Shown here piece by piece: positions 4,521 to 7,827 of a stretch of DNA of 7,827 nucleotides; the first letter of the stretch is position 1, and each line of letters begins with the position of its first letter. A model generated the notes under the pieces. It was not told where the DNA came from, searched no databases, and saw only the letters and a program-made list of their open reading frames with translations. Both the position numbers and the translations under genes were made by a program. The stretch is from a virus. Lineage: Duplodnaviria; Heunggongvirae; Uroviricota; Caudoviricetes. The stretch covers positions 1 to 7,827 of IMG/VR virus record IMGVR_UViG_2778261572_000001; one strand, 5' to 3'.

Positions 4521-4739
4521 ATGCCTGCATTTTTCAGAAAAGAATATCCGCGAAAGATCAGAGCAACAGAATTCCTGTTTCTCATTCTGTTTATCGTGTT
4601 GATGATACCGATATCCCCGTTAATTCTGGTATGGGGAATCGGGAAAATAATTGAGCCAGTTATTGAATTGTATAACGACGTGGTATGGGCGTCGTTCAAC
4701 ACATTGCACAATAAAATTAATCCATATAAGGAAAACTGA
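4521..4739 (+). CDS. small single-pass membrane protein, 72 aa
   Basis: A strong RBS (AAGGGGAG) lies 6 nt before ATG 4521. The translation has a basic N-terminus (RKEYPRKIR) followed by one hydrophobic helix (FLFLILFIVLMIPISPLILVWGIG). The region is AT-rich. Confidence 0.55.
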   Translation: MPAFFRKEYPRKIRATEFLFLILFIVLMIPISPLILVWGIGKIIEPVIELYNDVVWASFNTLHNKINPYKEN

Positions 4740-4740
4740 A

Positions 4741-5235
4741 ATGACTTTTACCGAAAAAGAAATGATTAAAGAAATCAAAGAGCGTATCAGTAGCCTGGAC
4801 GTACGAGACGATATTGAGCGCCGGGCTTATGAAATTACATTGGCATCACTGGAAGCAGAGCCGGTAGCATGGAGTGTAGGCAATGCTATAACTCGTGACC
4901 ATGAGAAAGCACAAAAGATTGCCGGGGATACTGGATTTTCAATTATTCCATTATACACTGTCGCAAAAGATGCTCAGAGTGTGACAAATCATTGGATGCC
5001 TGAAGTTGGCGAATATTGCGAAGTATGTACTGATGACTCTGAAATTGAATGGTTAAAAATCAAGGTGGTTGCTATTCATGGCGATGAGGTAGCCGCCATT
5101 GTTTGTGACCCTGACGATTATTATTATGATCGCTTAAAGCTTTTGGGTTGGGAATACGACAATTCTGTTTTTCGCCCTCTATCCGAAGGCGATGTTGAAA
5201 ATAACCCGATAAGTGCGGAGAACACATTACGATGA
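4741..5235 (+). CDS. hypothetical acidic protein, 164 aa
   Basis: ATG 4741 is coupled to the upstream stop (TGAAATG) and preceded by AAGGA about 8 nt upstream. The ATG at 4651 in the ORF track overlaps the previous gene and has no RBS. The C-terminal half is rich in D, E and Y (CDPDDYYYDRLKLLGWEYDNSVF). I recognise no family with confidence. Confidence 0.58.
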   Translation: MTFTEKEMIKEIKERISSLDVRDDIERRAYEITLASLEAEPVAWSVGNAITRDHEKAQKIAGDTGFSIIPLYTVAKDAQSVTNHWMPEVGEYCEVCTDDSEIEWLKIKVVAIHGDEVAAIVCDPDDYYYDRLKLLGWEYDNSVFRPLSEGDVENNPISAENTLR

Positions 5236-5350: not shown

Positions 5351-5409
5351 TGCAGCGGGTGCTTGAGGCTATCTGTCTCAGGCATGAACACCAAAAGGCA
5401 GATAGAGAA

Positions 5410-5480
5410 AAGCCCCAGTTAACATTACGCGTCCTGCAAGACGCTTAACATTAATCTGAGGCTCAATCCATGCTGAACAC
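5410..5480 (-). ncRNA. sok: Sok-like antisense RNA (position inferred)
   Basis: In hok/sok loci the antisense RNA is transcribed opposite the mok translation-initiation region. A candidate minus-strand promoter is present: TTGCCT (complement of 5508-5513), a 17-nt spacer, then TAACCT (complement of 5485-5490). The coordinates are approximate and the ends are not determined. Confidence 0.3.
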
Positions 5481-5682
5481 ATGTAGGTTAGCCTCTTACG
5501 TGCCGAAAGGCAAGGAGAAGCAGGCTATGAAGCAGCAAAAGGCGATGTTAATCGCCCTGATCGTCATCTGTTTAACCGTCATAGTGACGGCACTGGTAAC
5601 GAGGAAAGACCTCTGCGAGGTACGAATCCGAACCGGCCAGACGGAAGTCGCTGTCTTCACAGCTTACGAACCTGAGGAGTAA
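5470..5682 (+). CDS. mok: Mok-like in-frame upstream reading frame of hok, 70 aa
   Basis: ATG 5470 is in frame with hok, with GAGG at 5457-5460 and a 9-nt spacer. The N-terminus MLNTCR... matches the chromosomal MokC-type extension as I recall it. Confidence 0.5.
   Translation: MLNTCRLASYVPKGKEKQAMKQQKAMLIALIVICLTVIVTALVTRKDLCEVRIRTGQTEVAVFTAYEPEE
5527..5682 (+). CDS. hok: Hok/Gef family type I membrane toxin, 51 aa
   Basis: The translation MKQQKAMLIALIVICLTVIVTALVTRKDLCEVRIRTGQTEVAVFTAYEPEE is an unmistakable Hok/Gef family sequence, by my recollection closest to HokD/RelF. AAGGAG at 5512-5517 with a 9-nt spacer precedes ATG 5527. Confidence 0.85.
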   Translation: MKQQKAMLIALIVICLTVIVTALVTRKDLCEVRIRTGQTEVAVFTAYEPEE

Positions 5683-5689
5683 GAGACCT

Positions 5690-5746
5690 GGCGGGGGAGA
5701 AATCTCCCGCCACCTCTGATGTGTCAGGCATCCTCAATGCACCCGC
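5690..5746 (+). other. hok mRNA 3' structure: stem-loop plus fbi-like element complementary to the mRNA 5' end
   Basis: A stem-loop lies at 5690-5711 (GGCGGGGGAG aaat CTCCCGCC). The segment 5732-5746 (CCTCAATGCACCCGC) can pair over 14 bp, with one bulge, to 5355-5368 (GCGGGTGCTTGAGG). This is the long-range tac/fbi interaction characteristic of hok mRNAs. Confidence 0.5.
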
Positions 5747-5806
5747 ACCTGACGCGTTTTGCTGGGTTAATGTTGAGCCATTTGTCATGTTAATAAGGAG
5801 GAGTGA

Positions 5807-6672
5807 ATGAGAACGTATATTAAAGAGTTGAGATGGGGTAATTTTATCCTGCTCAGAGGTGATATGATTTCTAATTATGCTTCAAATTATGGGGAATGGT
5901 GCGAGGTTGAGGTTGACTTATACAAAACATTATTATCAGAAGGTAGTAATGTTATAGAGATAGGTGCAAACATAGGACTGCATACAATTCCATTGTCAAA
6001 AATTTGTGGTAAAGGGAGCATAATATGCTTTGAACCGCAACCACCAATATTTAACATGTTATGTGGTAATTTGGCTATAAATAATATATTGAATGTTATG
6101 CCATATAACAAAGCTGTTGGAGATAGGTGTGGTAGTGTTGTAATTCCTGTGTCTTCGTATGATAAACCATGGAATTATGGTTCATTTTCAATTGAAAAAG
6201 GTTATAATAGTGAAGGTGATTATGATGCCAGCCCAGCCCAGCCCAGCAATGCATTGATCTAATCACAATAGATGCATTTACGGAATCAACGGGCTTGAAA
6301 GTTGATTTTATTAAAATAGATGTTGAAGGCTATGAACTAAACTGTATTCGCGGGGCCGTAAACACAATAAAGGATAACAGACCAGCAATATTTTGTGAAG
6401 CCATTAATAAAAATATTACAAATGAGGTTGTGTCTTTTTTATCAGATCTTGGTTATGAAGGTTTTTGGTTCATTGGAAACAGATATAGACAAGATAACTT
6501 TTTTGCATGTCCTGGACAAATCTATAATAAATTGAGTTATGATGTTAATATTATCTTCATTCATAAAGAGGACAGGGGGGGATCGAGAAATCTATGTAGA
6601 GAAAGGCTTAAAAGATTCGAGTATTTTGAGCAATTACATGAAGGGATAACTGTTCTGAATTCATATCCTTAA
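5807..6672 (+). pseudogene. FkbM-family (Methyltransf_21) SAM-dependent methyltransferase, frameshifted at a pentanucleotide repeat
   Basis: The N-terminal ORF 5807-6262 carries the VIEIGANIG glycine-rich SAM-binding motif and the ICFEP motif. The C-terminal reading frame is open from 6226 to 6672 and carries KVDFIKIDVEGYEL. The two frames meet at the repeat at 6227-6247; deleting one 5-nt unit gives a single ORF of about 286 aa. A strong RBS (AGGAG at 5796-5800) precedes ATG 5807. The region is markedly AT-rich, roughly one-third GC by eye. Confidence 0.7.
6227..6247. repeat. pentanucleotide tandem repeat GCCAG(CCCAG)3C
   Basis: Read directly from the sequence. It forms a GC-rich island inside an AT-rich gene, exactly at the frame break of the methyltransferase. 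Confidence 0.9.
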
Positions 6673-6697
6673 AAATATCTGTATTACTTCATGTTAG

Positions 6698-6750
6698 CAG
6701 ATAAACCAATTCCGAACATTGGGGTTGGTTTATCTGTATTTATGTTTTAT
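6698..6750 (+). terminator. candidate intrinsic terminator after the methyltransferase gene
   Basis: A perfect 12-bp inverted repeat, CAGATAAACCAA (6698-6709) and TTGGTTTATCTG (6725-6736), is followed by a T-rich tract (TATTTATGTTTTAT). Confidence 0.45.
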
Positions 6751-6814
6751 CATTAGAATAAAGCCAGTCTGAACAACTGGCATCTGCTGCACTGCGCCAT
6801 AGAGAGATTAATAA

Positions 6815-7414
6815 ATGGCGCATATACAACTGGTCAAACATACTTCTTCTGGTTTACTTCTCCCGGCGACGCCGGAGAGTTGCGATTTTTTGCATCAAAT
6901 CAAAATAGGTGAGTGGATACACGCAGACTTTAAGCGTGTGCGTAACTACGCATTCCACAAGCGTTTTTTCAAACTCCTGCAACTGGGATTCGATTACTGG
7001 ACTCCGGTCGGTGGGGCGATCACGCCTCGCGAACGAAAACTGGTATCAGGCTTCGTTGATTACCTGTGCGAATCAGTAGGTCGGGAACACACTCCAGCCC
7101 TGAGTGATGCCGCAGAGCAATACCTTAATACAGTTGCGACATGCAGAACCCGGGATACGGCATTGCTAAAGTCGTTTGACGCTTTCCGCGAGTGGGTAAC
7201 CATTCAGGCCGGATTTTACACCGAGCATATTTATCCGGACGGTAGCCGCGGGCGTCGAGCGAAATCCATCGCGTTTGCGAATATGGACGAAACCGAGTTT
7301 CAGCAGGTTTATAAATCTGTGCTGAATGTGCTGTGGAACTGGATCCTGTTCCGTAAATTTTCCTCTCCGGAACAAGTCGAAAATGTGGCCGCGCAGCTAC
7401 TGGAGTTTGCGTAA
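6815..7414 (+). CDS. DUF1367-like prophage nin-region protein, 199 aa
   Basis: ATG 6815 follows the terminator-like hairpin, and the stop overlaps the next start as TAATG. The family assignment is from memory of proteins of this size preceding DUF1364/YbcO genes in lambdoid prophages and was not verified. Confidence 0.55.
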   Translation: MAHIQLVKHTSSGLLLPATPESCDFLHQIKIGEWIHADFKRVRNYAFHKRFFKLLQLGFDYWTPVGGAITPRERKLVSGFVDYLCESVGREHTPALSDAAEQYLNTVATCRTRDTALLKSFDAFREWVTIQAGFYTEHIYPDGSRGRRAKSIAFANMDETEFQQVYKSVLNVLWNWILFRKFSSPEQVENVAAQLLEFA

Positions 7415-7704
7415 TGGTGAATTTACGTAAAGCGGCGCGGGGCCAGATGTGCCAGGTCAGAATCCCTGGATACTGCAATCATAATCCTGAAACGTCTGTG
7501 CTGGCGCATTACCGACTGGCGGGAACGTGTGGAACGGCGATAAAACCACACGATATGCAGGCAGCGATTGCCTGTAGCTCGTGCCACGATTTAATCGACG
7601 GGCGGGTAAAAACCAGCGATTACACCAAAGAAGAATTACGCCTGATACATGCAGAAGGTGTTTTTCGCACACAAGAAATCTGGAGAAAGGAAGGTTATTT
7701 ATGA
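7414..7704 (+). CDS. ybcO: YbcO-like (DUF1364) putative zinc-binding nuclease, 96 aa
   Basis: The translation MVNLRKAARGQMCQVRIPGYCNHNPETSVLAH...CSSCHDLIDGR matches my recollection of the YbcO family, including the N-terminal LRKAARG motif and the Cys cluster. It is coupled to the upstream gene (TAATG) and to the downstream gene (ATGA). Confidence 0.65.
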   Translation: MVNLRKAARGQMCQVRIPGYCNHNPETSVLAHYRLAGTCGTAIKPHDMQAAIACSSCHDLIDGRVKTSDYTKEELRLIHAEGVFRTQEIWRKEGYL

Positions 7705-7827
7705 TTTACCCAACGAATACAGGAAAAAGCGGAGAACACCTTCGTCTCACCACGCTGGAAAGTGTCTGGATTCAGGGGAAACTGCGTATGTGGGGGCGCT
7801 GGTCGTATATTGGTGGCGGTAAGACGG
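7701..7827 (+). CDS. 5' part of a downstream nin-region gene running off the window; possibly a Q-antiterminator-like protein
   Basis: A strong RBS (AAGGAAGG at 7687-7694) with a 6-nt spacer precedes ATG 7701, and the frame is open to the window end. The motif LRMWGRW loosely resembles the ERWGAW motif near the N-terminus of 82-type Q/QuuD antiterminators; this product guess is weak. Confidence 0.5.
   Translation, partial: MIYPTNTGKSGEHLRLTTLESVWIQGKLRMWGRWSYIGGGKT

Follow-up and report, generated by a model that had tools for sequence, protein, structure and literature searches.

Why should a methyltransferase gene in an Escherichia coli prophage be broken exactly at a short tandem repeat? 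The window (the whole stretch of DNA that was analysed, 7,827 nt; coordinates refer to it unless another record is named) carries a gene of the FkbM family that is divided between two reading frames, with a pentanucleotide tract at the junction. The original prediction regarded it as a candidate phase-variable gene, with a dead pseudogene and a sequencing or assembly error as the alternatives. Is the gene switched, dead or simply misread?

The repeat tract and the protein it interrupts

The features on which the question turns are the following:

5795..5801, plus strand: strong Shine-Dalgarno sequence AAGGAGG, read from the sequence, 5 nt before the ATG at 5807
5807..6262, plus strand: N-terminal frame of the FkbM gene (frame 2), giving a 151-aa truncated product (OFF); recognised as an ORF with a profile match and carrying the SAM-binding motif
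6226..6672, plus strand: C-terminal frame of the FkbM gene (frame 1), which holds KIDVEGYE and bears a signature of selection
6228..6247, plus strand: simple sequence repeat (CCAGC)x4, candidate frame switch; 4.0 copies, 100% match (Tandem Repeats Finder)

The ORFs bear out the split, with its coordinates, as it was first described. Frame 2 is closed by the TAA at 6260-6262, 4 codons past the tract, while frame 1 opens at 6226 immediately after a TGA (6223-6225) and ends with the TAA at 6670-6672. The junction of the two frames does coincide with the repeat, originally written as GCCAG(CCCAG)3C at 6227-6247; the same bases form a perfect (CCAGC)x4 at 6228-6247. A period-5 tract of at least 20 nt arose in none of 2000 dinucleotide-preserving shuffles of the window, where the longest reached 16 nt. 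The CCAGC tract is real and non-random. Neither a Chi-like nor a Dcm site matches within the repeat by inspection.

In all three frames the tract encodes the same PAQPS period and contains no stop codon. When the window gene was rebuilt with different unit numbers, n=3 and n=6 each yielded a single ORF (286 and 291 aa, respectively), and n=1, 2, 4, 5, 7 or 8 led to a stop 3-4 codons past the tract; an allele of the window type is thus ON when n is a multiple of 3. This agrees with the earlier expectation that loss of one unit or gain of two would restore one ORF of about 286 aa. With the four units of the window, the C-terminal frame (6226-6672) is predicted to be out of the ribosomes' reach. 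Programmed ribosomal frameshifting was considered and rejected, as there is no slippery site and the state is set by the DNA copy number.

The repaired 286-aa protein matches Pfam Methyltransf_21 (PF05050) with 64.7 bits (cut-off 22.7 bits; E 1.5e-17), in an alignment that covers positions 1-172 of the 173 in the profile, and the NCBIfam model TIGR01444 (fkbM_fam) with 104.9 bits (cut-off 37.7 bits), so that the expected full-length family match was obtained. Both motifs that had been pointed out are present, the SAM-binding VIEIGANIG at 5951-5977 and KIDVEGYE at 6313-6336, and residues G53, G57, E76, K173, D175, E177, E180 and E201 are invariant across 58 homologues. The predicted product is an FkbM-family SAM-dependent methyltransferase with a class I (Rossmann-like) methyltransferase fold. 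The AlphaFold2 model of P0003, a natural 291-aa ON allele identical to the window sequence outside the tract, has a mean pLDDT of 94.3; the repeat-coded residues (141-150) fall in its sole low-confidence block (pLDDT 69) and form a surface loop that links the Rossmann core with the strand running up to KIDVEG. The corresponding loop is variable in homologues that have no repeat.

Fold searches with the FkbM product returned generic class I methyltransferases and did not narrow the substrate. Neighbourhoods of four homologues with 40-47% identity were also considered as a guide to the substrate and were discarded, being mutually unrelated: a stress-sigma cluster, genes for TPR/GT41/sulfotransferase proteins, P450 genes and a two-partner secretion system. 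There is a weak match to PF05575 (E 0.0067, 16.2 bits against a 27.9-bit cut-off). No DNA methyltransferase was matched by the repaired protein in Pfam or NCBIfam, the DNA-methyltransferase motifs (D/N/S)PP(Y/F/W) and PCQ are absent from it, and PADLOC recorded no defence system. No res/hsdR or specificity gene adjoins the locus, whose neighbours are hokD and the DUF1367, YbcO and DUF1133 genes. Neither of the two phasevarion hallmarks that we looked for, a DNA-methyltransferase domain or motif and an adjacent restriction or specificity gene, is therefore predicted for the FkbM gene.

Repeat number and selection among relatives

Close relatives in the protein database come from E. coli only and fall into four diverged allele families (79-99% amino-acid identity), in all of which the same tract occupies the same codon. 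Overall, copy numbers of 3, 4, 5, 6, 8, 9, 10, 11, 12, 15, 16, 17, 19, 20, 27 and 34 were found, those of intermediate size from short reads being best taken as minimum values, some of which may be collapsed, in line with a published warning (PMC5909438). Assigned by matching predicted products, and with the third and fourth families each represented by one DNA locus plus protein sequences, they are distributed as follows:

Window-type family: n = 3, 4, 5, 6, 10, 11, 16, 19, 34; ON at 3 and 6
Second family: n = 3, 4, 6, 9, 10, 12, 17, 27; ON at 4 and 10
Third family: n = 5; ON at 5
Fourth family: n = 8, 15, 20; ON at 15

Intact alleles, encoding proteins of 286, 291, 288, 298, 306 and 289 aa, thus exist in every family, and in both OFF frames a stop is reached 3-7 codons past the tract across alleles. 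Most sampled alleles are OFF. Counted as combinations of family and number, 6 of the 21 states are ON and 15 are OFF, close to the one third in frame that is expected when the frame is not under constant selection, as for an unbiased switch. Comparison across homologues therefore gave a repeat number of 3 to 34 units, in-frame variants included.

Among complete E. coli genomes the FkbM gene is rare (5 of 5,426, of which 5,115 have some match to the window). In the five long-read genomes that carry it, the homologous site has 34 (TUM9812), 3 (tcmA_3), 12 (E41), 10 (E9) and 17 units (VTB97432v); of these copies, the one with 10 units alone is annotated as a single intact gene (298 aa). One IMG/VR contig has 27 units; this tract and the 34-unit one are perfect and uninterrupted. 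Scans for the tract plus its flanks added one locus each from IMG/VR and from metagenomes. Many database entries are labelled partial and begin or stop at most a few residues from the tract (clusters of P0006, P0007, P0009 and P0010), which indicates that draft (short-read) assemblies commonly break there and that both prevalence and tract lengths are under-reported.

Three individual records deserve mention in their own right. In P0002 (a Logan contig; 286 aa, in frame) the tract has ...ASPAMQCID... in place of ...ASPAQQCID...; the repeat is interrupted or altered there, which could reflect either a real stabilising mutation or an assembly error. In E. coli TUM9812, RefSeq lists a 59-aa 'hypothetical protein' (WP_264831870.1; L001 3414-3593) on the opposite strand; it is made up of little else than the 34-unit repeat and is very likely a spurious ORF arising from the stop-free tract. 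Finally, a member of the most diverged family (~79% identity; L031 492-1484, contig AATMKH020000069.1 of GCA_012907645.2) lies beside a Rep3_N plasmid-type replication gene and a DUF4222 gene on a contig that ends within the FkbM gene; this context suggests a plasmid or phage-plasmid, not a lambdoid nin region.

Differences in unit number were found on backgrounds that are otherwise the same. Locus L025, with six units and an intact 291-aa gene, differs from window positions 5719-7827 (n=4, OFF) by no mismatch over 2,109 shared positions and by a single 10-nt gap. Likewise, L023 (n=3, ON) and L039 (n=16, OFF) represent the same prophage with 2 mismatches in 6.45 kb, and the 34-unit copy of TUM9812 shows 3 substitutions relative to the window in 846 nt of coding sequence. 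In these pairs the tract changed faster than point mutations accumulated. Such ON and OFF alleles, which differ in n on identical or near-identical backgrounds, argue strongly for the phase-variable reading first proposed, and the four-unit copy of the window is, judging from these comparisons, a real OFF allele of a gene that exists both ON and OFF in nature.

Both halves of the gene carry the mark of purifying selection. Between families, where pS is 0.28-0.79, the N-terminal half (before the tract) has a pN/pS of 0.10-0.15 and the C-terminal half one of 0.13-0.18. When the DNA downstream of the tract is read in the two wrong frames, pN/pS rises to 1.1-2.1 and 9-22 stops appear. In the alleles the C-terminal frame is free of stops and of other frameshifts, the phase of the tract being the sole lesion. 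The low ratios in both halves imply that selection has maintained the whole protein, with the tract remaining at the same codon throughout.

It might be argued that the selected trait is the length of the (PAQPS)n loop itself, which would tune the enzyme, and that out-of-frame copies are deleterious by-products on the way to loss. The tract-coded surface loop does span 3-15 units in intact proteins of 286-306 aa, and the stop-free PAQPS period common to the three frames would suit such a role. However, 15 of 21 states are out of frame, near the 2/3 expected without selection on frame, and OFF alleles sit on otherwise undamaged backgrounds with identical flanks. Moreover, in homologues of at most 53% identity, which come from metagenomes and from a MAG of the Burkholderiales, there is no repeat and the loop is an ordinary one, as long as that with n=3. 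We consider selection on loop length an improbable account.

The second alternative, a decaying pseudogene with a neutral microsatellite, holds that the cargo gene no longer functions in E. coli and that tract length merely drifts. The interrupted copy in the window, the preponderance of OFF alleles, the rarity of the gene, the failure of a promoter scan to detect a promoter and the flagging of one copy as a pseudogene by PGAP are all compatible with it. Yet purifying selection on both halves, seen in four families at near-saturated synonymous divergence, indicates that the family is not a dead pseudogene, the C-terminal frame has escaped the stops that fill the wrong frames, and the lesion is always at the tract only, with intact alleles in every family. 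Decay is thus very improbable, and this alternative from the original prediction is disfavoured. That n=4 is a sequencing or assembly artefact and the gene of the source strain is intact is hardly credible: although the window is a whole contig (NLMV01000110.1, 7,827 bp) of an E. coli draft assembly (GCA_002229415.1), and long repeat tracts are known to come out at the wrong length in short-read assemblies (PMC5909438), the same 151-aa product with n=4 recurs in four independent assemblies or runs whose upstream genes differ, a tract of 20 nt, being shorter than common assembly k-mers and reads, would not be expected to collapse to n=4, and long-read complete genomes vary likewise.

The prophage cassette

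Two further features define the unit in which the gene travels:

5749..6760, plus strand: FkbM cargo cassette, 1,012 bp, 34% G+C; homology to the TUM1881 prophage (E. coli; L037) breaks off after 5748 and is found again from 6761
6697..6737, plus strand: terminator-like hairpin with a 19-bp stem followed by a T-rich run, from a consensus scan; 25 nt past the stop codon and within the cassette

The G+C content of the cassette (0.34) departs from that of its flanks (0.47 and 0.50). In the TUM1881 prophage, which is otherwise 94-99.9% identical to the window, the slot between hokD and the DUF1367 gene (L037 5553-6794) is filled by a hypothetical gene and a toxin of the Doc (death-on-curing) family. 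The cassette has three features of a moron, namely a discrete insert between conserved phage genes, alternative cargo in a relative and deviant composition, and the hokD-DUF1367 slot is, on this comparison, a cargo hotspot. The gene order (YdaT-like, DnaT-like and P-like replication genes, DUF1627, Ead/Ea22, the hok/sok module, FkbM, DUF1367, YbcO) places the FkbM gene in the predicted nin region of a lambdoid prophage.

Directly upstream of the cassette lies a hok/sok type I toxin-antitoxin module (5357-5682), composed of a sok match in Rfam (5357-5532, 118.9 bits), the HokD ORF (5527-5682, 51 aa) and a mok-like ORF that starts at 5470 and overlaps it. The FkbM gene directly follows a hok-family gene in all relatives that were examined, the most diverged family included. 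Between the DUF4014 gene and hok, a 194-aa ORF (4651-5235) has no Pfam or PADLOC match; at its position in L004 and L037, RefSeq annotates a 41-codon remnant as a partial 'dTDP-6-deoxy-L-hexose 3-O-methyltransferase'. As for expression signals, the consensus scan found no sigma-70-like promoter between 5683 and 5806, that is, in the spacer from hokD to the ATG, which includes the 58-nt leader of the cassette. The terminator-like hairpin is also present in the L030 allele family.

A search of 50,697 phage records gave no DNA match, and at the protein level only methyltransferases of at most 33% identity from rhizobial and jumbo phages; plasmids held only distant FkbM genes (at most 34% identity). 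Among GTDB species representatives there was no close relative, the best being a repeat-less homologue with 53% identity in a Burkholderiales MAG.

Proposed mechanism and known phase-variable genes

Taken together, these comparisons make it highly probable that the FkbM gene is a contingency locus, switched by a slipped-strand CCAGC repeat and carried by lambdoid prophages of E. coli. In this proposal the CCAGC copy number would set the reading frame, the repeat itself encoding the (PAQPS)n surface loop, and slipped-strand mispairing during replication would add or remove 5-nt units. One copy-number class in three would then give the full enzyme of 286-306 aa, and the other two would run into a stop 3-7 codons past the tract, losing the C-terminal half with its invariant K/D/E/E residues. 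Loops of 5 nt should lie beyond the sizes that MutS repairs in E. coli, and the tract would for that reason be unstable even in repair-proficient cells. We infer that copy number changes frequently and reversibly within a clone. Since no promoter was found in the cassette, transcription in lysogens would probably depend on read-through from hokD or on phage early transcripts.

Not all tracts need be equally active. The short states n=3, 4 and 6 recur unchanged across several assemblies, which suggests that short tracts are fairly stable; tracts such as n=4 may switch slowly, and the window's own four-unit tract is probably slow or near-locked in the OFF state, being weakly mutable. The minus strand of 6228-6247, (GCTGG)n, reads GGGCTGGGCT... 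and fits the canonical G-quadruplex pattern, four runs of G3 separated by 2-nt loops, when n is at least 5; the four units of the window are one G3 run short of it, and the coding strand is the matching C-rich (i-motif-type) sequence. The predicted (GCTGG)n G-quadruplex at n of at least 5 could help drive instability.

Textbook phase variation in E. coli proceeds by DNA inversion and Dam methylation, and repeat-driven switches are seen as typical of Haemophilus, Neisseria, Campylobacter and Helicobacter. Genes switched by repeats are a familiar kind; what stands out here is the species of the host, the phage that carries the gene and the family of the enzyme. In Haemophilus and Neisseria, contingency loci with tetra- and pentanucleotide units (for example the lic and lgt genes, modA with AGCC[n], modB with CCCAA[n]) resemble the FkbM gene in having within the ORF a perfect repeat with a unit length not divisible by 3, long perfect tracts and a number that varies between strains. 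The mechanism proposed here, ON/OFF switching at the level of translation, follows the logic of these loci and of those in Campylobacter. They differ from it in that the host here is E. coli, the vehicle is a temperate phage and switching is deduced from sequence. PMC5909438 and PMC11868660 provide background to this comparison. Phase variation was reviewed in 2025 in a paper that covers E. coli only via DNA inversion and Dam methylation, and neither 'prophage' nor 'pentanucleotide' occurs in its text. Searches of the literature for FkbM genes with repeats, for CCAGC or its rotations and for pentanucleotide repeats in E. coli prophages returned no description of the locus.

The remark in the original prediction that such a switch is unusual for E. 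coli holds, the sole precedent found in this species being a Type III mod gene with a 7-nt CAGCGAC[n] tract, present in some Shiga-toxin-producing strains and presented in 2018 as the first phase-variable methyltransferase in E. coli (PMC5909438). In both cases a methyltransferase ORF is interrupted by a repeat whose number varies between strains, only a subset of strains carries the gene, and short-read assemblies break the tract or give it a wrong length. The mod product, however, is a DNA N6-adenine methyltransferase of a restriction-modification system, whereas the FkbM gene has a 5-nt unit, neither a DNA-methyltransferase motif nor a res partner, and a place in the cargo slot of a lambdoid prophage.

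Two methyltransferases that act on surface glycans offer functional parallels. RfbT (WbeT) of Vibrio cholerae is an FkbM-related O-antigen methyltransferase, the loss of which by mutation changes the serotype, as in Ogawa/Inaba conversion. The FkbM product is not a member of the RfbT family, as its PF05575 score lies below the cut-off, and RfbT is not known to have a repeat-tract switch or to be phage-borne. In Campylobacter jejuni, cj1426 encodes a phase-variable capsule heptose 6-O-methyltransferase whose ON and OFF states alter the surface glycan and the serotype (PMC8437040). Like the FkbM gene, it specifies a non-DNA methyltransferase with a repeat tract in its ORF, but its tract is poly-G, it resides in a chromosomal capsule cluster and its substrate is known, in contrast to a pentanucleotide on a prophage. 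By analogy, cj1426 seems the most likely functional model for the E. coli gene. Our best guess for the target, made by analogy with cj1426 and RfbT and offered with low confidence, would be a surface glycan modified by O-methylation. The stronger proposition, that a temperate phage brings in a true contingency locus whose CCAGC tract switches glycan O-methylation (of O-antigen, LPS core or flagellin glycan), so that clonal lysogens are always mixed, we put forward as a tentative and rather doubtful possibility.

If the contingency reading is true, this locus is, among the literature found, a second and unrelated repeat-switched methyltransferase in E. coli, and one that is mobile on lambdoid prophages. 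As the product is by homology a non-DNA methyltransferase, it would point to the switching of a small-molecule or glycan modification and not of an epigenetic regulon. Annotation pipelines render such a gene as two fragments, a pseudogene or partial proteins at contig ends, with the consequence that both the gene and its state are routinely missed. Were the target indeed a surface glycan, the lysogen population would be heterogeneous towards phages or antibodies, and a mixture of modified and unmodified lysogens might serve as a hedge against superinfecting phages or host antibody.
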